A stretch of 64,000 nt of DNA, taken from positions 160,001-224,000 of the forward strand of contig CAVUPH010000014.1 of the NCBI GenBank assembly GCA_963743305.1, given 5' to 3'. The notes under the pieces were generated by a model. That model was not told the DNA's origin and ran no database searches. It was given only the letters and a program-made list of their open reading frames with translations. Within the stretch, counting starts at the first letter, position 1; every line of letters begins with the position of its first letter. This document shows positions 1,115 to 45,411 of this stretch, one piece after another. The position numbers and the translations under genes were made by a program. The DNA is from an uncultured delta proteobacterium. Its GTDB lineage: Bacteria > Desulfobacterota > RBG-13-43-22.

Positions 1115-2338
1115 TTGACGGATTCGCCAGCACCGGAATAGTCGTCACCGGTATCGGGATTATCGGTTCCCTGGGGATAGGGCGGGAGACCTTTTGGAAT
1201 AATTTTCTATCCGGCCAATCCGGGATTAAAACCGATCCAGGAATTCCTTCCCCTGGAAACAAAGATTCACTTCGGCGGGGAGGTGGAAGGGTTCCGTCCC
1301 AAGGAGTATCTCTCGCCCCTGGTTTATCGAAAGATGGGCCGGTCTTCCCGGCTGGCCGTAGTGGCCAGCCTGGAGGCCCTGCAGGATGCCGGACTGGAGA
1401 TCAATGACCTCAATAGGGATCGCATCGGGGTCTTTGCCGGCACGGGTTACGGCAATTCCGGGCTGACGGACGAATATTTTGTCAGTTTCATGGAAGGCGG
1501 CCCCCAGGGGGCCAATCCCCTTTTATTTGCCGATACGGTCCCCAATACGGCCGGCAGCCACATCAGCCTCTATCATCGCTTGCGGGGCCCCATCACCACC
1601 TTTTGCCAGAATTTAATCTCCGCCGAACTGGCCTTGATCTATGCCTGCCGGCAGTTGCAGGCCGGATCGGCCGAGGCCATCCTGGTGGTGGGGGTGGATG
1701 AGCTTTCTCCCATCGTTATGCATGCCTTTTCGGTGTTAAAAGGGCTGAATCCCTCCATCAATCCTATTCTGGGAGGGGGGCCGGTTTTAGGAGAAGGGGC
1801 CTGCGTTCTGGTTTTGGAACGCCGGGAGCAGGCCCTCATCCGCCGGGCTCCGATTTACGGGGAGATCTCCGCTCTGGCCCTGAACAGCGGGGTTACCCGG
1901 GCGGGCCACTATGAAGAGGAAGGCCGGGCCATGAAAAAGGTGGTTCAGGAATGCCTGGATAAAGAGGGGACTCGCGGCAGGACGCCGGATCTGATCAGCC
2001 TCTCGGCCGATTTTTCAGGGGAGCTGGATCCCCGCGAATTCCAGGTTCTGCGGGAGATTTTCGGGAACGGCTGGTCCGGGATTGCCCTTTCCCCGTTGAA
2101 ATATTTCGCCGGAGAATATGGCGGGATGGGGGCGCTTCGGTTGGCTATACTCCTTTTAGCTTTCCGGGACCAGATGATCCCCCCCACGGTGAACCCGGAC
2201 CAATTGGAAGCGGGAACCCCCTGGGACCGGCGTTACCTGCCCGCCCGCCCCGGGAAAATCAATCGGGGCCTGCTGACCGGCTTCACCTTCGGAGGCGGGA
2301 ACGCCTGCCTGGCGGTTCAAAAAAGTCCCGGTTTATAG
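1111..2338 (+). CDS. Catalytically inactive ketosynthase / chain-length-factor-like protein (one +1 indel near 1228-1231)
   Basis: VVTGIGIIGSLG start; removing one A in AAAA joins ORFs 1111 and 1283; Cys/His/His positions read NLIS, SLSADFS, KYFAGE; ends FTFGGGN; ATGA overlap with KS. Confidence 0.75.
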
Positions 2339-3676
2339 GAATCCGGCGCCTTCGGCCCGTTCCCGCTCTTTTCGGCCTTCCGTCAAATCCACCCCTTTGA
2401 GGAGCAGGAACCCGATGACAAACAGGATTCCAATGGATAGAATTCCCCAACGCAGGCTCCCGGTGATCTGAATAGTCAGCCCGTAGATCAGGGGCCCGAA
2501 GATAGCCGAAAATTTCCCGATCACTCCAAAAAAACCAAAGAACTCAGCGCTGGCTTTGGGTGGGGTTAATTGCCCCTGCAGGGCCCGCGAGGCCGATTGA
2601 CTTCCGCCCAAAACCAGACCGGCCAGGAATCCCAGGGCCCAGAACTCATTTTTCAGGGACCCGAAGAATCCCAGGAAAAAAGCCCAAACCGTAATGAGCA
2701 TCCAGACCATTAAACTTAGCGTAATCGCCTGTTTATTTCCCCAGGCCTCGGACAGTTTTCCAAATAGCAATGCCCCCCCGAAGGCTGTAGCCTGGATAAA
2801 GAGAAAGAAGAGGATCAGCTCCTGGTCCTTAAAGCCCACGATCTCCGCCCCAAAAATAGAAGCCATGATGATCACGGTTTCCACCCCCTCGTTATAAAAG
2901 AGATAGGCCAGGAGAAAACGTCCCAGTTGCCGAAATTGGCCTACTCGTTTCCCGGTTTCGGAGAGGCGTCGAAAACCGATAGCCAGATAGTTTTGACTTT
3001 GACCGGATGGCAGCGAGTGCCGGGGGGAGGCTTTTTCCCTCACCCAGACCATGGTCGGAAGAGCAAAAAGCAGCCACCAGAGGGCGGCGGAAAGAAAACA
3101 ATCCTGGACGGTAAAATAGCCGCGGGGAAGTCCCAGCAGGAAGGGGAATTGGAGCATAATCAGGTTGATCAGCAACAGCAGTCCGCCGCCCAGGTAGCCT
3201 ACGGCCCAACCCAACCCGGAAACCCAGCCCAATTGTTCCTCCCGGCAGATCTCCGGCAGAAAGGCGTTATAAAAAACATTTCCGGCGGCAAAGCCGATAT
3301 TGGCCAGGATGAAGAAAAAAGCGGCCCTCAGGTAGGTCCCTTCACGGGTAAAGTAGAGCAGTCCGGTGAAGATTACTCCGACCAGCCAAAAAAATACCAA
3401 CATCTTTTTCTTGGCCCGGGAATAGTCGGCTATGGCGCCTAATACCGGGGCCAAAATGGCAGAAATAGCCAAGCTGACCGAGACGGTAAAGGTAAAAAAG
3501 GCCGCCCCATGGAAATGCATCCCTAAAAAATCCACCCCCTGGGCCCCCTGCGCGATTTTCAGGGCGAAGTATTTATTGAAAATCACCGCCAGGATCGTCG
3601 TGGCAAAAGCGGAATTGGCAAAGTCATAAGAAGCCCAACTGTAAATTTCCCGACGGTTATATGCAGGATCAGGCAT
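2333..3676 (-). CDS. MFS transporter, UMF1/Atg22-like family
   Basis: SWASYDFANSAF, LGAIAD, FYNAFLP, QSASR motifs; about 12 hydrophobic segments. Confidence 0.85.
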   Translation of the reverse strand: MPDPAYNRREIYSWASYDFANSAFATTILAVIFNKYFALKIAQGAQGVDFLGMHFHGAAFFTFTVSVSLAISAILAPVLGAIADYSRAKKKMLVFFWLVGVIFTGLLYFTREGTYLRAAFFFILANIGFAAGNVFYNAFLPEICREEQLGWVSGLGWAVGYLGGGLLLLINLIMLQFPFLLGLPRGYFTVQDCFLSAALWWLLFALPTMVWVREKASPRHSLPSGQSQNYLAIGFRRLSETGKRVGQFRQLGRFLLAYLFYNEGVETVIIMASIFGAEIVGFKDQELILFFLFIQATAFGGALLFGKLSEAWGNKQAITLSLMVWMLITVWAFFLGFFGSLKNEFWALGFLAGLVLGGSQSASRALQGQLTPPKASAEFFGFFGVIGKFSAIFGPLIYGLTIQITGSLRWGILSIGILFVIGFLLLKGVDLTEGRKERERAEGAGFL

Positions 3677-33688: not shown

Positions 33689-34988
33689 TTAATCCTCGCA
33701 TTCCAGGATAACCTTTTCTACCCGGTTCAGATCTTTTTCATAAAAGAAGGACCCGGCAAAAAAAAGCAGGGCCGACAACAGAAGAAAAATGGGCAGGATA
33801 GTCATGGCCGCTTTGATGCCGTATACATCAGAAATCGCCCCGATTACGATCGGGGCCAGCGAAGCCCCGAGGAGATTCTGAAAAACGACACAGATGGAGT
33901 AAGAGATAGCCCGAAGTCCGGGGTGGACCACCTCCTGGGTAACGGTGATGGCCGCCGGGGAAAAGGCGCTGGCCACGATGCCCATAAGCAGGAGCATCAG
34001 GTACTGAGCCTTTCCCTCAAGAAAGGAAAAGGCGATAAACAGGATAATGGCATTCAGGGCCGTCGTAACGGCCGGAAAGAGAAGTCGTGAACTCACCCGC
34101 TTCTTAAACCACATATCGGCCAACCATCCTCCCAGGGGGAGGCCGATGATGGCCAGCAGCATGAGCAGACCTGTTTTCATGCCCGCCTGACTGATGGGGA
34201 GACCGTCCACACGGTGAAAATAGGTAGGGAAGCCAGGTGATGATGGCATTGTTGGCAAAGATGCAGCCGACAAACCCGAGATTGGTCAGAATCAGGGAAG
34301 GAACATGGAGGAAGGCGCGAAAGATATCCATCTTGCTCATCTTGACCCGGTTCCGGCCGGTATCACAGGAATCCACCGTCTTGACCAGTTCTACGGTCTT
34401 ATAGTCCTTGACGAAGAAGAAAAGGATGGCCACGAGCGCTCCGGGAAGGGCTACCAGGCCGAAGGCATGCCGCCACCCCCAGGTTTGGGCCACGTAGCCG
34501 CCGATACCAATGCCGACGGCGATACCGAGGGGGATAGAGATATTCCAAAGACCCATCATGCGGGAACGTTTTTCCGGGGGAAACAGACCCGAGAGCATAG
34601 CCGTGCCGGCGGGGGCATAGCCGGCCTCCCCGACACCAATGCCGGAGCGGGCCATCAGCAACTGGGGAAAGCTCTTGGTAAAGGCACAGGCTACCGTGGC
34701 GGCCGTCCAGAGCAGGGCCATGACGCCGATGGTTTTTTTTCGGCTCCAACGGTCCACGAGGATCGAGACGGGAAAGACAAAGGCGACAATGGACCAGTAA
34801 ACGGCTGACACGAGCAGGCCGGACTGGGCGTCCGTCAGTCCATATTCCTTTTTAATGAACGGGAAAAGGGAGGTCACGATCATCCGGTCGACATAATCGA
34901 AAAAATACAGCAAGAACAGCAGGGTGAAGATATAATAGGAACTTCCTTTGGACAGCTTGTATTCCTTGGGTGTAGTCAGGCCATTCAT
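33689..34988 (-). CDS. MFS transporter (spinster-like), one frameshift near 34230
   Basis: DYVDR, DRWSRK, GVGEAGY; ORFs 34104-34988 and 33689-34273 form the two halves. Confidence 0.85.
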
Positions 34989-35255: not shown

Positions 35256-35399
35256 TCTTTAATGTAACCAAGGGGCTAGTCGAAGTGGGTTGATTGGACA
35301 TTGACAAATAAAGGGATTCCAAACAAAATAAAACCCGACAAGTTTACTATTTAAATGGAGGCCTCCCGTCTCTGCCTTAATCGAATGGTCCGGTTCAGT

Positions 35400-36098
35400 A
35401 TGACGACATTAAAAACCACTGCTAAGGAACCGCCGGCACCCGAATTCCTTAAAGAAATTCCGGCCAGTCCGACATTCCTGAACCTTCCGGAAGCCAAGCG
35501 GGATCGAATTATCTTGGCGGCCACCCGGGAATTTTCAGAAAAGGGATACCAGGGAGCTTCCATCAACACCCTGGTGGACGACCTGGGAATCTCCAAGGGA
35601 TCGATATTCCAATATTTTTCTAACAAGAAAGGCCTTTTTCTCTTTATCTTCCAGGCGGCGGTGGCTCAGGTCCGCAAAACGCTGGTAACGGTAAAAGAAG
35701 AAACCGAGGAATTGGAGGTCTTTGAACGAATCAGGAGTTCACTCCTGGCCGGAGTCGATTTCGTTCGTCGGCATCCCCATATCTATAGAATATATTTGAA
35801 ATTACTGTTCGATCGGGACGCCCCTTTCCGCAATGAGCTGCTTCAGGCCGTTCGACTATTTTCCTCCGAATATCTGGGTTCTCTGGTGCGAAAGGGGATG
35901 GACCGGGGGGAGATCCGCCGGGATATCGCCCCGGAACAGGCGGTCTTTATCCTGGACGCGGTGCTGGACCGATACCTGCAAGCCTATATGGTTCCTTATC
36001 TGGACCACAGAGGCAATATCTACCGGGTTGATCAAAAAAAGGTGGAAGAGTGGGCGGTCGGACTGGTTACTATTTTACGAAAAGGCTTGCAAGGATAG
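35400..36098 (+). CDS. TetR/AcrR-family regulator (start uncertain, 35355-35400)
   Basis: TFLNLPEAKR..I..AA..EFSEKGY..ASIN......GISKGSIFQYF..KK. Confidence 0.9.
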   Translation: MTTLKTTAKEPPAPEFLKEIPASPTFLNLPEAKRDRIILAATREFSEKGYQGASINTLVDDLGISKGSIFQYFSNKKGLFLFIFQAAVAQVRKTLVTVKEETEELEVFERIRSSLLAGVDFVRRHPHIYRIYLKLLFDRDAPFRNELLQAVRLFSSEYLGSLVRKGMDRGEIRRDIAPEQAVFILDAVLDRYLQAYMVPYLDHRGNIYRVDQKKVEEWAVGLVTILRKGLQG

Positions 36099-36136
36099 TT
36101 TTTTTTCTTTATAAAATGACCAGGTGGTCATTTTAT
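36087..36136 (+). promoter_or_regulatory. sigma70-type promoter overlapped by a perfect palindromic operator
   Basis: TTGCAA-N17-TATAAA; ATAAAATGACCA-GG-TGGTCATTTTAT at 36111-36136. Confidence 0.7.
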
Positions 36137-36151
36137 TGGAGGTGGTTGAAA

Positions 36152-37240
36152 GTGCTTGAAGTCAGAGATGCGCGGCTAATGCCCATCCGGGAAAAGGTTT
36201 TATCGGGGGGGCGCTTGGAAAAGGAAGATGGTTTGGCCCTCTATCAAAGCCCTGACCTGCTGGGTGTGGGGGCTTTGGCCAACCGGATCCGAGAGAACCG
36301 AAACGGTAACCGGGCCTATTACATCGTCAACCAGCATATTAACTATTCGAATATCTGTCAGAACCGCTGCCGTTTTTGCGCCTTCGGTCGGGACCCGGAG
36401 GATCCGCTGGCTTATCAAATGAGCCTGGAGGATATCGAGGCGAAAGTCCGGGAACGGCTGTCCGACCCGATCAGCGAAATTCACATCGTCGGGGGTATCC
36501 ATCCCACCCTTCCCTTTGCCTACTACCTGGAAATGCTTCAACGGATTAAAAGAATCCGCCCGTCGGTTCACCTGCAGGCCTTCACGGCCGTGGAAATCGC
36601 CCATTTGGCTCACCTGGCCCAAAAATCCATTGAAGACACCTTGTCGGTCTTGATGGAAGCCGGGCTGGGATCCTTGCCGGGGGGCGGGGCGGAGGTCTTC
36701 AGCTCCCGTATCCGGGAAAACCTCTGCGCCAAAAAACTCCCTTCCCGGGATTGGATTTCCGTTTGCCAGACGGCCCACCGTCTAGGGCTCCATACCAATG
36801 CCACCCTGCTCTACGGCCATCTGGAGACCCTGGAAGAGCGGGTGGACCACTTGCTGGCCCTGCGGAAGGCCCAGGATGAGACCGGAGGCTTTCTGACCTT
36901 TATCCCGCTCGCTTTCCATCCCAAGAATACCGAGTTGGCGGAAATGGCCGGTACGACCGGCGTGGATGATCTGAAAAATATCGCCGTGGCTCGCCTGATG
37001 CTGGACAACTTTCCCCACATCAAGTCCTTCTGGATCATGATCGGTCCCAAACTGGCCCAGATTTCCCTGTCCTTTGGAGCCGACGATATAGATGGAACGG
37101 TCATTGAAGAACGGATTACCCATATGGCCGGGGCGGAAACCGCCCAAGCCATGACCCGGGAGGAAATTCTTCACCTGATCCGGGAAGCCGGACGTGAACC
37201 GGTGGAGCGGGATACCTTGTATAATACCGTAGTCCACTAA
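36152..37240 (+). CDS. mqnE: Aminofutalosine synthase (radical SAM, CofH-like)
   Basis: NYSNICQNRCRFCAF, EIHIVGG, AFTAVEI, PGGGAE, FIPLAFHP, HIKSFW, ITHMAG. Confidence 0.88.
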   Translation: MLEVRDARLMPIREKVLSGGRLEKEDGLALYQSPDLLGVGALANRIRENRNGNRAYYIVNQHINYSNICQNRCRFCAFGRDPEDPLAYQMSLEDIEAKVRERLSDPISEIHIVGGIHPTLPFAYYLEMLQRIKRIRPSVHLQAFTAVEIAHLAHLAQKSIEDTLSVLMEAGLGSLPGGGAEVFSSRIRENLCAKKLPSRDWISVCQTAHRLGLHTNATLLYGHLETLEERVDHLLALRKAQDETGGFLTFIPLAFHPKNTELAEMAGTTGVDDLKNIAVARLMLDNFPHIKSFWIMIGPKLAQISLSFGADDIDGTVIEERITHMAGAETAQAMTREEILHLIREAGREPVERDTLYNTVVH

Positions 37241-37262: not shown

Positions 37263-38282
37263 ATGCGCCTCAATTCCCAACAAGCCCTGGACTGGTACCA
37301 ATCGGATCTCCTGACACTCGGGCAAGCCGCCCAGGAGGTTCGCTGGAAGCTCCACCCCGAACCAGTGGTCACTTATGTGGTGGACCGGAACATTAATTAC
37401 ACCAATGTCTGCCTTTCCGGCTGCCGTTTTTGCGCCTTTTATCGGCAGGCGGATTCCCCGGAAGCCTATGTGCTGGACCGGGAGGTCTTGGGCAAAAAAA
37501 TTGAAGAAACATTGGCCCTGGGAGGCACCCAGATACTGCTTCAGGGCGGGATGCACCCTGATCTGCCCTTTTCATTTTATGAGGACTTGCTTCAATGGAT
37601 CAAGGGCCGTTACCCGATCCACATCCACGGATTTTCGCCTCCCGAAATCAATCACCTGGCCCGGATAGCGGGTATGCCCCTGGAAACGGTTTTAATCCGG
37701 CTTAGGGATTCCGGACTTGGCTCCATTCCGGGCGGGGGGGCTGAAATCCTGGTGGACCGGGTCAGAGAACGGGTTTCTCCCCGAAAAGGGACGAGCGCCG
37801 AGTGGCTTCAGGTCATGGAAACAGCCCACCGCATTGGGTTGCGAACTACCGCCACCATGATGTTCGGCCATCTGGAGACCGTCGCAGACCGGATTGAGCA
37901 CCTCTTGGCCGTACGAGAACTGCAGGATCGTACCGGCGGCTTCACCGCTTTCATCCCCTGGACCTTCCAGCCGGGGAATACCGATCTGCGGCGGATTCCG
38001 GCCGGAGGGACGGAGTACTTGCGTATGCTGGCCCTGTCCCGGTTGGTCCTCGACAACATTCCCAACATCCAGGCTTCCTGGGTTACCCAGGGGCCCAAGG
38101 TCGGGCAAATCGCCCTTCTGTTCGGAGCCAACGACCTGGGCAGCACGATGATCGAAGAAAATGTGGTGGCCGCCGCCGGGGTGGCTTACCGCTTATCTAT
38201 TGAAGAGCTGGCCCGCCTGATCACGGCCGCCCGTTTTATCCCCCAACAGCGGGACACCTTTTACCAAAAGGTGGCGACATGA
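37263..38282 (+). CDS. mqnC: Cyclic dehypoxanthine futalosine synthase
   Basis: TYVVDRNINYTNVC..GCRFCAFY, LLQGG, FIPWTFQP, QASWVTQG, MIEENVV. Confidence 0.9.
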   Translation: MRLNSQQALDWYQSDLLTLGQAAQEVRWKLHPEPVVTYVVDRNINYTNVCLSGCRFCAFYRQADSPEAYVLDREVLGKKIEETLALGGTQILLQGGMHPDLPFSFYEDLLQWIKGRYPIHIHGFSPPEINHLARIAGMPLETVLIRLRDSGLGSIPGGGAEILVDRVRERVSPRKGTSAEWLQVMETAHRIGLRTTATMMFGHLETVADRIEHLLAVRELQDRTGGFTAFIPWTFQPGNTDLRRIPAGGTEYLRMLALSRLVLDNIPNIQASWVTQGPKVGQIALLFGANDLGSTMIEENVVAAAGVAYRLSIEELARLITAARFIPQQRDTFYQKVAT

Positions 38283-39145
38283 CCCCCCGGGTGGCGGTTA
38301 TCGCCAGGGTTGGCGCTCATCGGGCTTTTCTGGAGCAAGGCGCCCGAGAGTTAAGTGTTCAGCCCTTGAACACTCCATTCGGGTTAAGCGTTCCGATCCA
38401 TTTTTTGGAGTCGGAGGGCATCCCCTTTGTGGTCTTATCCCGCCATGGGGAGGACCGATATGCTACCGCGGCCCCCTTCGTAAACGACCTGGCCAACATC
38501 TGGGCACTGAAAGAAGCCGGCATCGAAAAAATCCTGTCCTGGTCGGCTCCCGGATCCCTGAATCCGGCAATGGCGCCGGGTTCCCTGGTGGTGGTGGATG
38601 ATCTGCTGGATGAAACCCGTTCCGGACCCCGGTCTTTTTTCGAGGGGAAGGGTATCGGGGTAATCCGGCAGGAGGCCGTGTTCTGTCCGGAAATTCGGGC
38701 GTTGATGATTGAAAAACTGGCGGGGGTCCCGTTCCTTCTTCATTCCCAAGGAGTCTATGTCTCCGTGGAAGGTCCCCGCCTGGAAACCAAGGCGGAGATC
38801 CGCAAGTATCGCCTGCTCGGAGGAGACCTGATCGGCATGAATCTGGCGCCGGAGGCCTTCCTGGCCAAGGAACTGGAAATGTGTTACGGGGCCTTGTGCT
38901 ATCCCGTCAATTTTGCCGAAGGGGTCAAGGTACGACCTTACGTGCGGGGGATCCTATTTGAGGGATTGGCCTTTCCCGAGGAAATGGCGCGGGTCAAAGA
39001 AGTGGAAAAGGCCTTCCCGGAACTGATCCTGCCTTTATTGGGCCCCTTGACGGAAACCCCCCGCGCCTGCCCCTGCCCCGTCGCCATGGAGCGCTACAAA
39101 ATCCGGGGAGACATCGGAGAAGACTTTCACACATGGATCAAATAA
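38279..39145 (+). CDS. MTAP/MTIP-family purine nucleoside phosphorylase-fold protein
   Basis: TPFG, SRHG, ANIWALK, PGSL, EGPRLETKAE, IGMN, PEAFLAKE, VNFAEG. Confidence 0.85.
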   Translation: MTPRVAVIARVGAHRAFLEQGARELSVQPLNTPFGLSVPIHFLESEGIPFVVLSRHGEDRYATAAPFVNDLANIWALKEAGIEKILSWSAPGSLNPAMAPGSLVVVDDLLDETRSGPRSFFEGKGIGVIRQEAVFCPEIRALMIEKLAGVPFLLHSQGVYVSVEGPRLETKAEIRKYRLLGGDLIGMNLAPEAFLAKELEMCYGALCYPVNFAEGVKVRPYVRGILFEGLAFPEEMARVKEVEKAFPELILPLLGPLTETPRACPCPVAMERYKIRGDIGEDFHTWIK

Positions 39146-40335
39146 CGCTCTACCAGGCCCGCTGGATCGTCCCGGTTAGCCTTCCGCCCATTGAACGAGG
39201 GGTCGTCGCGGTCCGAAAAGGCGAGATAACCGCGCTAGGGGGGGAAAAGGAAATTTCCCTGACCTTTCCCGGGGAACGGCGGGACCTGGGCCAAGGAGCG
39301 ATACTTCCCGGATTGATCAATGCGCATACCCATGTGGAACTGTCCCGGCTTAAAGGTCTCATTCCGGAAGGTTTGGGTTTCGTACCCTGGGTGAGGCACC
39401 TGCTGTCTCTCAAAGAAAAAACCAAGGCGGAGAATCCGGACGAGGCCGTGGGACCGGCCTGGGATGAAATCAGCCGTACCGGCACCTGTGCCGCCGGGGA
39501 CTGGATCAGCCTGGAGTGCCTGATCCCGCGAGGGTCTTCATCGAAAGTATTCCGCCGGTTATTCTTTGAAGTGATCGGATTTGACTCCTCGGGGTTGACT
39601 TTGCCGGAGGTCCTCGACGAGGGACCGGCGACGGACCTATTCGGAAGTTTAACCCTGGGGGCCCACGCCCCCCATAGCACCTCGGCCGCTTTGCTCCAGG
39701 CCGCCAAAACCTGGACCCGGCGAAGGGGTCTGCCGCTGGCCATTCATGTGGCTGAAACCAAAGAGGAAACGGAATTCCTGCTCACCGGGAAGGGCGTCTG
39801 GAAGGACTTTTTAATTGAGCGGGGGAAGTGGGTGGAGGACTGGAAGGCCCCCAAGACCACGCCGGTAAAATACCTGGACCGCTTGGGGCTGCTGGATGAA
39901 AATACCCTCGCGGTTCACCTGACCCAGGCGGATCCGAGCGACCTATCCATTCTGCGGGATCGAAGCGTGCGGGTGGTGGTCTGCCCGCGAAGCAACCGGT
40001 TTATTGTCGGGGCACTTCCGGATATTCCGTTCATGGTGCGGACCGGCCTGAAACCGGCCCTAGGCACCGACAGCTTGGCCAGTAATGCCGACCTGGGCCT
40101 CTGGGGAGAGATGGAGACCGTACAACAGGCCTTCCCGGAGATCGACCCTTGGGAGATTATCCGGATGGCCACTATCCACGGAGCCTCGGCCCTGGATCTG
40201 TCCGGGGAACTGGGAGACCTGTCCCCGGGGAAAAAGGCCCGGATGTTTTTTCTTCCTTTGAACGAAGTCACTGAAGAAGAATTACCCTCCGCCATTATCC
40301 ATTCCGGCGGACGGCGCCTGGAATGGCTGCGGTGA
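39133..40335 (+). CDS. Amidohydrolase, probable aminofutalosine deaminase
   Basis: PGLINAHTHVELS, HAPHS, IHVAE..EE, CPRSN, LGTDSLASN; mqn context. Confidence 0.75.
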   Translation: MDQITLYQARWIVPVSLPPIERGVVAVRKGEITALGGEKEISLTFPGERRDLGQGAILPGLINAHTHVELSRLKGLIPEGLGFVPWVRHLLSLKEKTKAENPDEAVGPAWDEISRTGTCAAGDWISLECLIPRGSSSKVFRRLFFEVIGFDSSGLTLPEVLDEGPATDLFGSLTLGAHAPHSTSAALLQAAKTWTRRRGLPLAIHVAETKEETEFLLTGKGVWKDFLIERGKWVEDWKAPKTTPVKYLDRLGLLDENTLAVHLTQADPSDLSILRDRSVRVVVCPRSNRFIVGALPDIPFMVRTGLKPALGTDSLASNADLGLWGEMETVQQAFPEIDPWEIIRMATIHGASALDLSGELGDLSPGKKARMFFLPLNEVTEEELPSAIIHSGGRRLEWLR

Positions 40336-40404
40336 CCGGATAAATCCCTGGTTGGAACCAAATTCCAAAATTGTTGAAAAAGTCGAAACTAACGGAAAGT
40401 AATC

Positions 40405-41853
40405 ATGGCTCATGCTGATTTACAGTCGTTTATATCCAGGCTGGAAAAGGAGGGGGAACTGGTTCGCATCAGGGAACCGCTGGATCCTTATCTGGAAATC
40501 TGCGAGGTAACCGACCGGGTCTGCAAGGCGGGCGGCCCCGCACTCCTTTTCGAAGCGGTGAAGGGGAAAACCGTTCCGGTGCTGACCAATGCCTTCGGTT
40601 CACTAAAACGGATGTGTTTGGCTCTGGAAGTGGAGCGCCTGGATCAAATCGGAGAGGAAATTCACCAGTTGTTGGCGCTCAAACCTCCCCAAGGTTTCAT
40701 GGATAAACTCCGGCTACTCCCTCGGCTCAAACGGCTCCGGGACCTGCTGCCGCGCACGGTGGACCGGGGACCCTGCCAGGAGGTCGTTTTTCAGGAAAAC
40801 CCGGACCTGTCCGCTTTCCCGGTTCTGACCACCTGGCCCCTCGATGGTGGTCCATTCATTACCCTGCCCCTGGTCATCACTCGGGATCCGCAGACCGGGA
40901 AACGCAACGTGGGCATGTACCGCCTCCAGGTATTTGACGCCAGGACCCTGGGGGTCCACTGGCAACTCCATAAAGTGGGGGCCCAGCATTTTCGCGCCGC
41001 CGAAGCCTCGGGGAAGGACCTGCCCGTGGCCGTGGCCCTGGGACCGGACCCGGCCCTGACCTACGCGGCCACCGCCCCGCTGCCGGAAGAGCTGGATGAA
41101 TTCATGTTCGCCGGGTTCTTGCGCCGGGAGCCCGTCAAACTGGTCAAATGTCGCACCATCGATCTGGAGGTGCCGGCCAATGCCCAGATCGTTATTGAAG
41201 GGATCGTCCCGGCCGGGAAGCGGCGACGGGAAGGGCCTTTCGGGGATCACACGGGCTATTATTCCCTGGCGGATGACTATCCACTGATGGAGGTGACCTG
41301 CATCACGCAGCGAAAGAACCCCATTTATCCGGCCACGGTGGTGGGGGTGCCGCCCATGGAAGACGCCTTCCTGGGCAAAGCCACGGAGCGTATCTTCTTG
41401 CCCCTGCTTCGACAGACCCTGCCGGAAATCCGGGATATGCATCTGCCGGCCGCCGGCGCTTTTCATAACTTTGCCCTGGTGTCCATCGAGAAACGCTACC
41501 CCGGCCACGCCAAAAAGGTGATGATGGCCCTCTGGGGGCTGGGACAGATGATGTTTTCCAAATTCATCGTGGTCTTTGACGGGGAGGTGGACGTCCAGGA
41601 CCTGAACCAGGTCCTCTGGCAATGGGGGGCCAATGTGGACCCCCGGCGAGACTCGGTACTGGTAGAAGGCCCGGTGGATGCGCTGGATCACGCCGCACCG
41701 CTGCCGGCTCTGGGCAGCAAAATCGGGTTTGATGCTACAACCAAATGGCCGGAGGAAGGATTCGGCCGGCCCTGGCCGGATAAGATCCGCATGGATCCTC
41801 AGGTGAGCGAACGGATCGACCAACTCTGGTCTAAGCTGGGGCTGCCGCGATGA
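40405..41853 (+). CDS. UbiD-family menaquinone biosynthesis decarboxylase (MqnL-like)
   Basis: GGPALLFE, NVGMYRLQ, EGPFGDHTGYY, PPMED, YPGHA. Confidence 0.9.
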   Translation: MAHADLQSFISRLEKEGELVRIREPLDPYLEICEVTDRVCKAGGPALLFEAVKGKTVPVLTNAFGSLKRMCLALEVERLDQIGEEIHQLLALKPPQGFMDKLRLLPRLKRLRDLLPRTVDRGPCQEVVFQENPDLSAFPVLTTWPLDGGPFITLPLVITRDPQTGKRNVGMYRLQVFDARTLGVHWQLHKVGAQHFRAAEASGKDLPVAVALGPDPALTYAATAPLPEELDEFMFAGFLRREPVKLVKCRTIDLEVPANAQIVIEGIVPAGKRRREGPFGDHTGYYSLADDYPLMEVTCITQRKNPIYPATVVGVPPMEDAFLGKATERIFLPLLRQTLPEIRDMHLPAAGAFHNFALVSIEKRYPGHAKKVMMALWGLGQMMFSKFIVVFDGEVDVQDLNQVLWQWGANVDPRRDSVLVEGPVDALDHAAPLPALGSKIGFDATTKWPEEGFGRPWPDKIRMDPQVSERIDQLWSKLGLPR

Positions 41854-42710
41854 AGCAGCTTGCGACAATTTTTGAACTAGTCAAATTTGAACATACGATT
41901 TTTGCCCTGCCCTTTGCCTATCTGGGGGCCTGGCTGGCGGCTTCCGGTCCGCCCAGCCTGAAGGTGGGGCTGCTGATCCTGGGGGCCATGGTCGGCGCCC
42001 GGACCGCGGCCATGGCCTTCAACCGGATCGCCGATGCCAAAATCGACGCACTCAACCCGCGAACGGCCGGCCGACCGATTCCCTCTGGGCGCCTATCCCC
42101 GGCCGCAGCCTGGTTCGTATGTCTGACCGCGACGGCCGCTTTTTTTCTGGCCAGTTGGACACTAAACCCCCTGGCCTTGGCCCTTTCGCCCTTGGCTCTG
42201 GGGGTGATCCTGGCCTATTCCTACACCAAACGGTTTACGGCGACCTCTCACCTGATACTGGGGCTGGCCTTAGCGATAGCTCCCATCGGGGGTTGGGTGG
42301 CGGTGCGGAATGAACTGGAGCTGCTCCCCTTGGTCTTGGGGGCCGGGGTCTTGTTTTGGGTGGCCGGCTTCGATGTCCTCTATGCCTGCCAGGACGAATC
42401 CTTTGATCGCCGGCACGGGCTGTATTCCCTTCCGGCCCGCAGGGGAGCCGCGGCGGCCTTTCGGGTGGCCGGTTTTTTTCATTTTCTGGCTTTTCTGTTT
42501 TTTGCCCTCACGGGCCGACTGGCCAACCTGGGGGGATTCTATTTTATCGGGTTAACCCTGGTCTTTATCTTTCTCTTTCTGGAACACCTGATTATTTCCC
42601 CCCGAGATCTTTCCAAGCTGCAGACTGCTTTTTTCACCTTGAACGGAGCGGTCAGTCTGGTTCTTTTTTTGGCCACCTGGCTGGAATTTTGGAAGGGACG
42701 TTCGTACTAA
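41850..42710 (+). CDS. UbiA-family polyprenyltransferase (MqnP-like)
   Basis: KFEHTIFALPFAY, AMAFNRIAD..ID..NPRT..R, YSYTKRF, GFDVLYACQD. Confidence 0.9.
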   Translation: MKQLATIFELVKFEHTIFALPFAYLGAWLAASGPPSLKVGLLILGAMVGARTAAMAFNRIADAKIDALNPRTAGRPIPSGRLSPAAAWFVCLTATAAFFLASWTLNPLALALSPLALGVILAYSYTKRFTATSHLILGLALAIAPIGGWVAVRNELELLPLVLGAGVLFWVAGFDVLYACQDESFDRRHGLYSLPARRGAAAAFRVAGFFHFLAFLFFALTGRLANLGGFYFIGLTLVFIFLFLEHLIISPRDLSKLQTAFFTLNGAVSLVLFLATWLEFWKGRSY

Positions 42711-42767
42711 AACCTCTTGCCCCGAGGGGTACCCGCGGAGCCTGAAGAAGATAAAGGAGGAGGTCCG

Positions 42768-43775
42768 ATGAATAAAAAAATTTCTCTCTTGTTAGGGGCC
42801 GCTTTCTGGCTGGTGAGTTTCTGCCCCCAGCCGGTTACGGCCCTGACCACGGTCAAAGTGGGGATGCTCAAAGTCTCCAGCAGCGCTCCTCTTTTTGTGG
42901 GGCTGGAAAAAGGATATTTTCAGGAGGAGGGGATCAGGATCGAGCCGATCTGGTTCAAGTCGGCCCAGCCCATCGCCGTGGCCCTGGCCAGCGGGGATAT
43001 TGATGTCGGGGCCACCGGTCTGACCGCCGGACTTTACAACGCCGCCGCCCAAGGAACCAAGCTGGCGGTCGTGGCGGACAAGGGTCGGGAATGGCCCGGA
43101 TATAAATTGACGGCCCTGGTGGTGGATTCGAACCAGACCAAGGCCGGAATCAAAGATCTCGCCCAACTCAAGGGGAAGCGGATTGGCATCACCCAGCTAG
43201 GCTCCACCTTTCACTATATGCTGGGCAACCTGCTGGAGAAAAGAGGCCTGTCCCTCAAAGACGTCAAAGTCGTTCCCCTGAACAGCCTCAATACGATGCG
43301 GGACGCCGTTTTCAGCCACCAGATCGAGGCCGCCTTCATGGTCCAGCCCCATGTCACCCCGGCGGAAAAAGCGGACCGGGCCGACGTGCTGCTCTGGGTG
43401 GGTGATCACCTGCCTTACCAGTTGGGAGGGATCTTTTATGGAGAGAAACTGATCAAGAACCGCTCCCTGGCCGTCTCCTTTCTCAAGGGCTATATTCGCA
43501 GTTGCCGGTATTATCATGAAAACGGATTGAGCAAGAAAGCGGGGGTGCCGACTCCGGAACTCCTGACCCTGATCGCTCGGTATACGGAAGAGAAACCCGA
43601 GGACGTGGCCGCCGGGCTGCCCTATATCGATCCCAACGGAGAGCTGCTCAGTGGTGACATTCAAAAACAGATTGACTGGTACGCGGCCCATGGCCTGGTG
43701 ATCCGAAGGATGCCTTCCTCCGAAATCATGGACCCTTCGCTTTACCGTGAAGCGCTGAATCAGCTTAAAAAATAA
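42768..43775 (+). CDS. ABC transporter substrate-binding protein (NitT/TauT/SsuA type)
   Basis: Signal peptide, APLFVG.EKGYF..EG, ALASGDIDV, LKGKRIG. Confidence 0.85.
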   Translation: MNKKISLLLGAAFWLVSFCPQPVTALTTVKVGMLKVSSSAPLFVGLEKGYFQEEGIRIEPIWFKSAQPIAVALASGDIDVGATGLTAGLYNAAAQGTKLAVVADKGREWPGYKLTALVVDSNQTKAGIKDLAQLKGKRIGITQLGSTFHYMLGNLLEKRGLSLKDVKVVPLNSLNTMRDAVFSHQIEAAFMVQPHVTPAEKADRADVLLWVGDHLPYQLGGIFYGEKLIKNRSLAVSFLKGYIRSCRYYHENGLSKKAGVPTPELLTLIARYTEEKPEDVAAGLPYIDPNGELLSGDIQKQIDWYAAHGLVIRRMPSSEIMDPSLYREALNQLKK

Positions 43776-44551
43776 TGCCGGTCTTGATCGAACAGCTTAC
43801 CAAAACCTATCTGGACCGGAAGGGGCGGACCCTGCCGGCGCTGGAAGAAGTGGATTTCACCGTCCGGGAGGGGGAATTCCTGACCCTCTTGGGCCCCAGC
43901 GGCAGCGGAAAAACAACACTGCTCAATATCATCGCCGGGTTGCTATCCCCCACTTCCGGCCGGGTGGTCTTCGAGAGAGCGAGTCTCAACGGCCGGCCGC
44001 TGACGGCGGTAGTTTTCCAGGAAGGCGCCCTCTTCCCCTGGCGGACCGTTGCAAAAAACATTCAATTCGGACTGGAAGAAAAGGGCCTGGGAAAAGCACA
44101 GCGCCGATCCCTGGCCGCTGAATTTATCCAATTGACGGGCCTGGCCGGCTTTGAGGATCGTTATCCCCACCAGCTCTCCGGAGGATTAAAACAGCGGGTG
44201 GCCTTGGCTCGGGCCCTGGCCGTGAATCCCTATCTCCTGCTGATGGATGAACCCTTATCGGCCCTGGATGCCCAGACCCGGCTGCTGATGCAGCGGGAAA
44301 TTTCGCAAATTTGGGAAAAGGCCCGGAACAGTGTCTTATACGTCACCCACAATATTCGGGAGGCCGTTTTCCTCAGCGATCGGGTGGCCGTCCTCTCACG
44401 GAGACCGGGACGGATCGTAGACCTGGTCTCCATCGACCTGCCCCGTCCCCGCAGTGAGGATCTAACCCGTGAGCAGCCCTTCCAGCGATACGTGGATCGC
44501 TTATGGTCCCGGATCAAGGACCAAGCCCGCGAGGCCATTGAGGAGGGATGA
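43775..44551 (+). CDS. ABC transporter ATPase (NitT/TauT type)
   Basis: GPSGSGKT, LFPWRTV, YPHQLSGG, LLMDEP, YVTH. Confidence 0.92.
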   Translation: MPVLIEQLTKTYLDRKGRTLPALEEVDFTVREGEFLTLLGPSGSGKTTLLNIIAGLLSPTSGRVVFERASLNGRPLTAVVFQEGALFPWRTVAKNIQFGLEEKGLGKAQRRSLAAEFIQLTGLAGFEDRYPHQLSGGLKQRVALARALAVNPYLLLMDEPLSALDAQTRLLMQREISQIWEKARNSVLYVTHNIREAVFLSDRVAVLSRRPGRIVDLVSIDLPRPRSEDLTREQPFQRYVDRLWSRIKDQAREAIEEG

Positions 44552-45411
44552 TGGCAGAAGAAAAGACCGCCTCTTTCTCAATCCGCCATCGGACGCCCCA
44601 GTCGTCCTATGCGGCGGCCCGAACCGGGACGGTTCGGGACAAGACCGCTTTTATCGATGACCGGCCCCAGCCTTATTTGAGCTGGATCGCTTTTGCGGTC
44701 CTGCTGGGCCTCTGGGAAGCGGCCGGCCGTCTCTCCCTGGTCTCCCCCCTCTTTTTGCCGGCTCCCAGTGATATTCTCATGGAAGCCTGGGGACTGCTGA
44801 TCTCCGGTCAGCTTTTCCGGCACCTGGGGATCAGCTTGTTCCGAATTGGAAGTGGTTTTACGCTAGCCGCCGGACTGGGCGTTCTGTCCGGGATACTGCT
44901 GGGTTCTTCGCGCCTGGCAGAGGCGCTGGGGAATCCGATCCTGGCCGCCCTCTTTCCCATCCCTAAAATCGCCATCCTTCCCTTGCTGATTCTCTGGTTG
45001 GGAATCGGGGAAGCCTCGAAGATTGCGGTAATCGGCCTGGGGGTCTTTTTCCCACTGGCCATCAACGTCTACACGGGGGTTAAGAACGTGGATCCCCTAT
45101 TGATCCGGGTGGCCCTGAGCCTCGGTTCCAGTCGTCTGGGTCTGATCAGAAAGGTGGTCTGGCCCGCCATTCTGCCCATGATCTTTGCCGGTCTGAAGCT
45201 GGGCCTGGGGATCTCGCTCCTATTGGTAGTGGCCGCCGAGATGATCGCCGCCGACGCCGGGATCGGGTATCTCATCCTGACCGCCGCCGATTTGATGCAA
45301 ACCAAGAAACTTATGGTGGGGATCGGGATGCTGTCCGGGCTCGGGATATCGTTTAACTGGCTGCTGGGGAAATTGGAACGGTTGCTGATCCCCTGGAAGG
45401 AGGGTCTTTGA
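44548..45411 (+). CDS. ABC transporter permease (NitT/TauT type)
   Basis: LPAPS, PIPKIAILPL.ILWLGIGE, VVAAEM...GIGY. Confidence 0.9.
   Translation: MMAEEKTASFSIRHRTPQSSYAAARTGTVRDKTAFIDDRPQPYLSWIAFAVLLGLWEAAGRLSLVSPLFLPAPSDILMEAWGLLISGQLFRHLGISLFRIGSGFTLAAGLGVLSGILLGSSRLAEALGNPILAALFPIPKIAILPLLILWLGIGEASKIAVIGLGVFFPLAINVYTGVKNVDPLLIRVALSLGSSRLGLIRKVVWPAILPMIFAGLKLGLGISLLLVVAAEMIAADAGIGYLILTAADLMQTKKLMVGIGMLSGLGISFNWLLGKLERLLIPWKEGL

Follow-up and report, generated by a model that had tools for sequence, protein, structure and literature searches.

A candidate futalosine-cleaving enzyme of the MTAP fold, encoded with MqnC in genomes apparently devoid of MqnB and MqnD

The window analysed here is the whole stretch of 64,000 nucleotides (nt) of contig CAVUPH010000014.1, positions 160,001-224,000, from assembly GCA_963743305.1, an uncultured delta proteobacterium labelled G000 below (4.9 Mb, 90.1% complete). 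It carries an operon of the futalosine pathway of menaquinone synthesis, in which the gene 38279..39145 (+) encodes a protein of predicted MTAP fold. This gene and its family are abbreviated as X when gene orders are given. The futalosine route is usually taken to run MqnA-MqnE-(deaminase)-MqnB-MqnC-MqnD. On balance, we favour the reading that the window protein is a pathway-dedicated enzyme of the MTAP/purine nucleoside phosphorylase (PNP) fold, which cleaves the N-ribosidic bond of futalosine in place of MqnB. The genes of the operon are the following.

35355..36098 (+), regulator of the TetR family, first gene of the operon (PF00440, 5.3e-13)
36050..37240 (+), mqnE, aminofutalosine synthase, a radical S-adenosylmethionine (SAM) enzyme (TIGR03700, 504.1 bits, cut-off 434.55)
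37263..38282 (+), mqnC, cyclic dehypoxanthinyl futalosine synthase, a radical SAM enzyme (TIGR03699, 503.7 bits, cut-off 428.1)
38279..39145 (+), MTAP-fold protein of 288 amino acids (aa), mqn-linked subfamily, candidate futalosine-cleaving enzyme (PF01048, 1.9e-29, residues 51-213)
39133..40335 (+), amidohydrolase, probable aminofutalosine deaminase (PF01979, 1.8e-27)
40405..41853 (+), UbiD-family menaquinone-pathway decarboxylase, MqnL type (TIGR03701, 654.8 bits, cut-off 495.9)
41850..42710 (+), UbiA-family prenyltransferase, MqnP type (PF01040, 9.8e-55)
42717-43775, 43775-44551 and 44548-45411 (+), SsuA/NMT1-type binding protein, ATPase and permease of an ATP-binding cassette (ABC) importer, appended after ubiA, with only putative membership in the pathway

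The ATG of the MTAP-fold gene shares 4 nt (ATGA) with the mqnC stop, and the amidohydrolase begins (ATG at 39133) 13 nt ahead of the stop of the MTAP-fold open reading frame (ORF), which confirms the overlaps on both sides described in an initial annotation of this DNA. The same annotation had placed the protein in the MTAP fold, and the predicted structure agrees with it: the AlphaFold2 model, for which 90 sequences were aligned (pLDDT 95.8, pTM 0.93), has as top Foldseek matches the MTAPs 1v4n, 1k27, 6dz0 and 1cb0 (E ~1e-24, TMq 0.77-0.80), and the Pseudomonas aeruginosa methylthioinosine phosphorylase (MTIP) 3ozb is matched as well. By score, the protein falls outside MTAP or MTIP proper. 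It stays under every MTAP, MTIP and PNP equivalog cut-off, with TIGR01694 as best match (168 bits for a cut-off of 274.85), and scores of 135.6 with NF006334 (cut-off 382) and 125.7 with NF005876 (cut-off 306). With the MTIP model NF006599 it reaches 132.9 (cut-off 223), and yet the MTIP-like Asn is present. The MqnB model TIGR03664 gives no match to it at E<=1.

Translation of 38279..39145 contains VAVIARVGAH, LIGMNLAPE and YPVNFAEG, and so the ARVG, GMN and VNFA motifs read initially are indeed there. The TDYD adenine-specificity segment of MTAP is absent, and reads VNFA. The protein was aligned to human MTAP (hMTAP), in which we take Thr18, Arg60-His61, Thr93-Ala94, Thr197 and Asp220/Asp222 to be phosphate or base sites. 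Arg60-His61 and Thr93-Ala94 are kept in the window protein as Arg55-His56 and Ser89-Ala90, but Thr18 of the GGTG loop corresponds to Val11 (with Arg10 beside it), Thr197 to Asn188, and Asp220 and Asp222 to Asn211 and Ala213. Conservation was counted over 81 sequences, i.e. the window protein and 80 relatives. SRHG(E/Q), with the Arg-His pair of the phosphate site, is found in 81/81, and so is Asn211 at the base-specificity position (hMTAP Asp220). The Thr of G(M/Q)T is present in 75 of the 81; the remaining 6 sequences, all from the clade of the window, are the only ones with GMN, and this clade is the sole one to have it instead of G(M/Q)T. As to the N-terminal loop, about 61 of the 81 have an ARVG-like one and 15, of Nitrospinota, Planctomycetota and Nitrospirota types, one of GGSG type, and a few Acidobacteriota read GRTG there. 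ARVG and GMN are thus derived traits of sub-clades, which leaves the argument for hydrolysis weak: the suggestion, made in the initial annotation, that cleavage is perhaps hydrolytic does not hold well for the family. Judging from its residues, the family overall looks like a 6-oxopurine nucleoside phosphorylase. Distant representatives (~30-40% identity) are variable at RHG, at GMT and at position 211, which can be D, A, G or H, and the chemistry may therefore differ between branches. Compared with the MTIP-type paralogue of the same genome, the family has specific features: Glu214 (AEG), an insert after AEG, and a C-terminal CxC...RY..RGD..DW..W segment.

The downstream amidohydrolase has as best matches among curated models a TRZ/ATZ hydrolase and the "aminofutalosine deaminase family", both under their cut-offs (125 bits for a cut-off of 320 with the latter, NF006269). 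Its closest solved structure is Deinococcus radiodurans DR_0824 (2imr, 102 bits, with NAHTH, HVAE and GTDS aligned), which we take to deaminate aminofutalosine, and which Goble et al. are said to have identified in 2013 as aminofutalosine deaminase. It also matches 7lkj, "Aminofutalosine deaminase", with 61 bits, and NF005557, a model of 5'-deoxyadenosine/methylthioadenosine (MTA) deaminases, with 86 bits. From these likenesses, and despite the NF006269 score being below cut-off, a deaminase role is the best reading. Together with the Asn found in all 81 sequences, such a neighbour fits the order of events put forward initially, i.e. deamination first and removal of hypoxanthine afterwards.

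The operon contains no MqnB or MTAN gene, as was noted at the outset, and this extends to the whole of G000: TIGR03664 (MqnB) has no match there at E<=1, and TIGR01704 (MTAN) none at E<=0.1. Neither MqnA nor MqnD was detected in G000 with PF02621 at E<=0.01, nor with a Desulfobaccales MqnA as query. No MenD or MenB scored above cut-off in G000, so that the operon is the only menaquinone route found in this genome. UbiX is encoded elsewhere in G000, outside the operon. PF01048 has four matches in G000: a PunA-type PNP, which adjoins an MTA/S-adenosylhomocysteine deaminase-like gene, an MTIP-type enzyme (locus L002, 229.8 bits with NF006599 for a cut-off of 223, motif VNWAAG), an AMP-nucleosidase/HpnG-like protein, and the window gene. 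The AMP-nucleosidase/HpnG-like one, the fourth PNP_UDP_1 protein (locus L003, G000:C6:117673-121248, ORF 1405-2364 (-)), scores weakly, with 61.9 bits for AMP nucleosidase and 39.2 bits for the hopanoid-associated HpnG, and might conceivably be another nucleosidase.

The family is large and widespread. Among the candidates scored, 1214 homologues of the window protein were found at E<=1e-3. The closest 120 are at least 57% identical, under source names that include Desulfobacca, Desulfobaccales, "Deltaproteobacteria" and Tectomicrobia. When one genome per species was scanned, relatives turned up in 207 species, and 80 of the loci were taken for the analysis of synteny. In 60 of these 80 loci, mqnC lies immediately upstream of the family gene, and many of the other 20 are of Nitrospinota type or sit on a contig starting at the gene. 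Desulfobaccales-type loci have the order TetR-mqnE-mqnC-X-amidohydrolase-(mqnA)-ubiD-(ubiX)-ubiA, the TetR homologue being upstream of mqnE in most of them, and loci of Acidobacteriota, Planctomycetota and Nitrospirota likewise have mqnC-X, followed or not by the amidohydrolase. Moreover, MqnC and X form one stop-free reading frame in 9 of the 60 mqnC-X loci. One such fused ORF of 706 aa comprises Radical_SAM, CofH_C and PNP_UDP_1, and the same long MqnC-X frame was seen in three genomes of one genus within the phylum sample described below. Clustering of 234 unassigned ORFs in and around the operons yielded no further conserved unassigned ORF. It gave only Liv-type permeases, a protein resembling outer-membrane proteins, a flavodoxin-like protein (3 loci) and Lgt, and a hidden conserved ORF as substitute for MqnD was rejected.

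We then compared the distribution of the family with that of MqnB, MqnD, MqnA and MTAN. The same-phylum sample consists of 301 genomes, evenly drawn from the phylum of the window; the family was detected with profile A2 (E<=1e-60), MqnC at E<=1e-120 and MqnB at E<=1e-20. MqnC was found in 151 of the 301 genomes, of which 24 carry the family and 127, the comparison group, do not. These 24, spread over seven families, are all the family-bearing genomes of the sample, and all have MqnC (24/24). MqnB was present in none of the 24 and in 103 of the 127. Two or more genes of PF02621 (the MqnA/MqnD family) were counted in 0/24 genomes with the family and 116/127 without it, one gene in 20/24 and 10/127, and none in 4/24 and 1/127, respectively. 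MTAN was above cut-off in none of 23 family-bearing genomes of this sample (one weak match, 44.7 bits). Within the taxonomic family of the window, MqnC and X are both found in 2 of the 9 relatives besides G000, and neither is in the other 7. Three genomes of the same phylum that belong to one family (G109, G146 and G271) have MqnC and MqnB, lack X, and show a single PF02621 match in open frames of 517-541 aa; it is possible that these are fused or atypical MqnA/MqnD genes.

A second set of 50 further family-bearing genomes, reached through the loci, gave a similar picture: MqnB was above cut-off in 0/50 (best match 59 bits) and MTAN in 4/50, all of Nitrospinota type. A single PF02621 gene was found in 46 of them and none in 3, and G008 has one gene plus a second copy interrupted by a TGA. 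The single copy that was tested (locus L053) is MqnA-like, with 138 bits to chorismate dehydratase 7ahr versus 27.5 to MqnD 2czl. Related genomes are not independent, and all these counts are to be read as a pattern, with no test statistic attached.

Removal of hypoxanthine from futalosine is the most economical reading, on which the purine-type site, the adjacent deaminase and the coupling or fusion to MqnC converge, together with the lack of both MqnB and MTAN. MqnE would make aminofutalosine, and the downstream amidohydrolase would deaminate it to futalosine. The MTAP-fold enzyme would then free hypoxanthine from futalosine, probably by phosphorolysis, which would be the ancestral reaction of the family. 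Finally MqnC, translationally coupled to it and fused in some species, would cyclise the sugar-linked product. The initial annotation had proposed the gene as a replacement of MqnB within a futalosine operon, a claim to be set against the distribution of mqnB. The tie to the operon proved general in most of the fetched loci, other phyla included, and both the genomic context and the avoidance of MqnB in the two sets of family-bearing genomes speak for the replacement. A simple substitution, in contrast, does not account for the loss of MqnD as well, nor for that of MqnA in the clade of the window. MqnD is absent too wherever the family occurs, with few exceptions, and the family therefore marks a variant of the pathway rather than a one-for-one exchange of MqnB. 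As MqnD is missing and the operons hold no other conserved candidate, its step would be performed by a gene located elsewhere, or the route would differ.

Several points weigh against this reading. In a second phylum, the family is most tightly tied to the loss of MqnD: among 121 Acidobacteriota genomes, 14 of which carry the family, one PF02621 gene is found in 11/14 with the family versus 4/85 without it. These 85 PF02621-positive genomes have one copy in 4 cases, two in 79 and three in 2; they include G373 and G398 (flagged unpublished, two copies each), and without them two or more copies are found in 79/83. MqnB is rare in Acidobacteriota anyway (above cut-off in 7/121), and G353, G372 and G462 carry the family together with two PF02621 genes; sub-cut-off MqnB-like matches exist in G353 and G372. 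The clade of the window is without MqnA, for which no reading accounts. G000, which is just 90% complete, encodes other possible purine-nucleoside cleavers, namely the MTIP-type enzyme, the PNP and the AMP-nucleosidase/HpnG-like protein. In the window protein, two Thr ligands of phosphate are gone (ARVG and GMN), so that phosphorolysis is uncertain for this protein, and we lean towards it only slightly in its case. In Nitrospinota the family gene lies amid unrelated genes, not clustered with mqn genes, and relatives 41-43% identical on Clostridia-like metagenome contigs adjoin an energy-coupling factor (ECF) transporter and an MtnA-like gene. On a quick IQ-TREE of 78 rows, the MqnCs of family-bearing genomes are split among clades, with at least 7 label changes, and thus nothing points to a co-adapted MqnC. 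Lastly, no biochemical test of any family member was found in the main texts of the open literature, and the sole printed proposal, discussed below, gives a PF01048 gene of such context and pattern the MqnD step, not that of MqnB.

Some of these points can be supplemented by observations of detail. PF02621 was not found in five genomes of the clade of the window (G000, G001, G002, G249 and G308), and no mqnA lies between amidohydrolase and ubiD in this clade (39133-41853 in the window; loci L005, L006, L007 and L018). No mqn genes were seen beside the Clostridia-type members in the metagenome loci examined. On one such contig (L102, 2132-7873), the genes of an ECF-type transporter, CbiQ and two ATPases, precede a 43% identical member. 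Upstream of it, at 4 kb, is an IF-2B/MtnA-like gene, and no mqn gene lies within 7 kb; members of this type may be a salvage-type branch of the family. A specialised MqnC lineage accompanying the family was rejected, the tree of 78 rows placing these MqnCs in several clades. In the closest relative, L005 (9081-9998), identity falls to 61% for MqnC, whose match is also shorter, whereas the other operon genes are 83-98% identical; this MqnC has a long branch on the tree and may result from a frameshift or an assembly error.

How could both MqnB and MqnD be dispensed with? By analogy with known chemistry, a single MTAP-fold enzyme might re-route the middle of the futalosine pathway via 1-phosphate intermediates, making both unnecessary, a bolder proposal that we hold to be rather unlikely. 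Phosphorolysis of futalosine, or of futalosine cyclised by MqnC, would produce 1-phosphate intermediates. MqnC would cyclise the 1-phosphate, and an MtnA-type isomerase or the C-terminal segment of the family would perform aldose-ketose isomerisation and ring opening. A retro-aldol cleavage driven by aromatisation would then release 1,4-dihydroxy-6-naphthoate and dihydroxyacetone phosphate (DHAP), where the standard route frees an unphosphorylated C3 fragment. An MtnA-like gene (PF01008) is present in G000; it is also present in 80/80 genomes (23 with the family, 57 without), and being universal it is uninformative either way. Class II aldolase (PF00596) was not found in G000. A literal copy of the DHAP shunt was considered and rejected. 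With these two results, and with MqnCs that form no separate lineage, positive support for the bolder route is limited to the phyletic pattern.

Among the rival explanations, the one that survives best is that the family replaces only MqnD, the 1,4-dihydroxy-6-naphthoate synthase, the purine being removed by a housekeeping MTIP-type phosphorylase or PNP; we give it a low probability. It was suggested by Ravcheev and Thiele (2016, Front Microbiol 7:128, PMC4746308) for a PF01048 gene that they named mqnZ (MHY_27640). According to the main text of that paper, mqnZ is found beside mqnC/mqnE or mqnEAC in Selenomonadales, Pelotomaculum, Syntrophomonas, Syntrophothermus and Thermosinus, occurs only in futalosine-pathway genomes without mqnD, and was for this proposed as replacement of MqnD; its authors state that sequence analysis lent no further support, and the term mqnB is absent from the main text. 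The window family has members in Bacillota/Clostridia, and for this reason it is probably the same family as mqnZ, a match made by domain, gene context and phyletic pattern. The family is thus uncharacterised but already noticed in print, and not new as such; this prior naming had been missed by the initial annotation. The loss of the second PF02621 gene with the family, in the phylum sample, in Acidobacteriota and in the 50 further genomes alike, speaks for a function in the MqnD step, and so does the MqnA-like nature of the remaining copy that was tested; the MTIP-type paralogue of G000, above its NCBIfam cut-off, could supply the missing cleavage. The substrate of MqnD carries no purine, however, and the family has nevertheless kept the Asn and Arg-His of a nucleoside phosphorylase site in all 81 sequences. 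Ring opening and retro-aldol cleavage by a PNP-fold enzyme have, to our knowledge, no known precedent. This explanation also leaves the absence of MqnB in 24/24 and 50/50 family-bearing genomes unaccounted for.

A second rival assigns no biosynthetic step to the gene: with the amidohydrolase, it would clean up the 5'-deoxyadenosine released by the radical SAM enzyme MqnC, through deamination to 5'-deoxyinosine and then phosphorolysis. The MTAP/MTIP-like fold with its 6-oxopurine-type Asn, the likeness of the amidohydrolase to 5'-deoxyadenosine/MTA deaminases, the coupling or fusion to a radical SAM enzyme and the MtnA-like gene near distant relatives would all be in keeping with it, as would the absence of MTAN, not found in G000 and above cut-off in only the four Nitrospinota-type genomes among the family-bearing ones. 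We think it quite improbable nonetheless, for G000 already has a separate set of deaminase, PNP and MTIP, the steps of MqnB and MqnD would be left without a candidate in genomes for which no menaquinone route other than the operon was found, and the avoidance of MqnB and (with few exceptions) of MqnD by the family receives no account. That the protein is an ordinary phosphorylase of methylthioinosine (MTI) or other 6-oxopurine nucleosides, a paralogue merely travelling with the operon, is suggested by its source labels (MTAP, or "MTAP family purine nucleoside phosphorylase") and by the relatives outside mqn clusters, but appears very improbable indeed given its scores below all MTAP/MTIP equivalog cut-offs, a C-terminal segment that the MTIP-type paralogue lacks, the fusions to MqnC, and the restriction of the family to MqnC-positive genomes in the phylum sample. 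Cleavage of futalosine in place of MqnB thus remains the reading that we favour.

As for the rest of the operon, the TIGR03700 match of mqnE begins only at residue 46, and the true start may therefore lie downstream of 36050. The UbiA-family protein scores 250-290 bits with MqnP models, under their cut-offs, and 299.6 with TIGR01475, above the cut-off of 180.8. The ABC importer genes (42717-45411) follow ubiA with a spacing of 6 nt and have overlapping starts. This module is found after ubiA in locus L005 only, L007 having just an ABC ATPase match further downstream, and no ABC importer genes occupy the matching position in L006 and L018; other Desulfobaccales operons then carry a Liv-type ABC system. 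The binding protein (42717-43775) was considered as a disguised MqnA/MqnD and rejected, because it has a signal-peptide-like N-terminus and adjoins an ABC ATPase and permease. Near the operon, at 33689-34988 (-), ORFs of 194 and 294 aa overlap each other and may be a split or frameshifted gene of a major facilitator superfamily (MFS) transporter, the longer one matching just positions 1-227 of the 347-position MFS_1 profile.

Lineages apparently without MqnB and MqnD but with the family are not rare: 207 species were matched, and the family is carried by 24 of the 151 MqnC-positive genomes of the phylum sample and by 14 of the 121 Acidobacteriota. If removal of the purine is its function, the family would fill a gap in the pathway that annotation by quorum conceals, and would correct the sole printed assignment, that of MqnZ as MqnD. 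If it is phosphorolytic, the pathway would gain new intermediates and the MTAP scaffold a new use. Should the bolder route be true, the DHAP shunt would have a counterpart in biosynthesis, spread across Desulfobacterota, Nitrospinota, Acidobacteriota, Planctomycetota, Aquificota, Armatimonadota and Bacillota. In the open literature, searched through main texts, neither "futalosine phosphorylase" nor any experimental follow-up of mqnZ was found; the term mqnZ is absent from the main text of PMC5738691, and a 2026 survey of quinone pathways mentions MqnB, MqnD and MqnZ nowhere in its main text.

Compared with known systems, the window family resembles mqnZ, as described in the main text of PMC4746308, in being a PF01048 family found beside mqnC/mqnE in mqnD-less pathway genomes, with as exceptions the 3/14 Acidobacteriota with two PF02621 genes and G008 with its second, interrupted copy. 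Unlike what is proposed there, the window family also goes with an absence of MqnB and MTAN, and its conserved site is of a purine-nucleoside-cleaving type.

The bolder route is like the DHAP shunt in that phosphorolysis, aldose-ketose isomerisation and aldol cleavage to DHAP formally match the chemistry of MqnD, as an analogy only. In the DHAP shunt and methionine salvage, MTAP/MtnP is followed by the MtnA isomerase and then by an aldolase. It differs from the shunt in that the MtnA-like gene does not discriminate between genomes with and without the family, and no class II aldolase was found in G000. For comparison, the review PMC6302742, which also bears on the shunt, notes in its main text that MTI and futalosine are alike, and suggests that MtiP, if promiscuous, could work in the futalosine pathway.

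With MTIP (3ozb, NF006599) and MTAP/MtnP (TIGR01694; 1cb0, 1k27), the window family shares the predicted PNP/MTAP fold, the Arg-His pair, GPRLET and G(M/Q)T, and with MTIP also the Asn of VN(F/Y)AEG, the MTIP-type enzyme of G000 reading VNWAAG. Unlike them, the window protein is under the cut-offs, has ARVG for the GGxG loop (Desulfobaccales type) and belongs to a different operon context, and its family has an insert after VNFAEG and a conserved CxC/DW..W C-terminus.

MTAN/Pfs hydrolyses aminofutalosine in Campylobacter and Helicobacter, and MTAN-like hydrolases are without a phosphate site. The window protein differs from MqnB and MTAN by its MTAP-type phosphorylase scaffold, a different branch, and its family never accompanies MqnB in the genomes searched; it is like MqnB (TIGR03664) and MTAN by its PNP_UDP_1 superfamily, and by the step proposed for it, the removal of the purine before MqnC.

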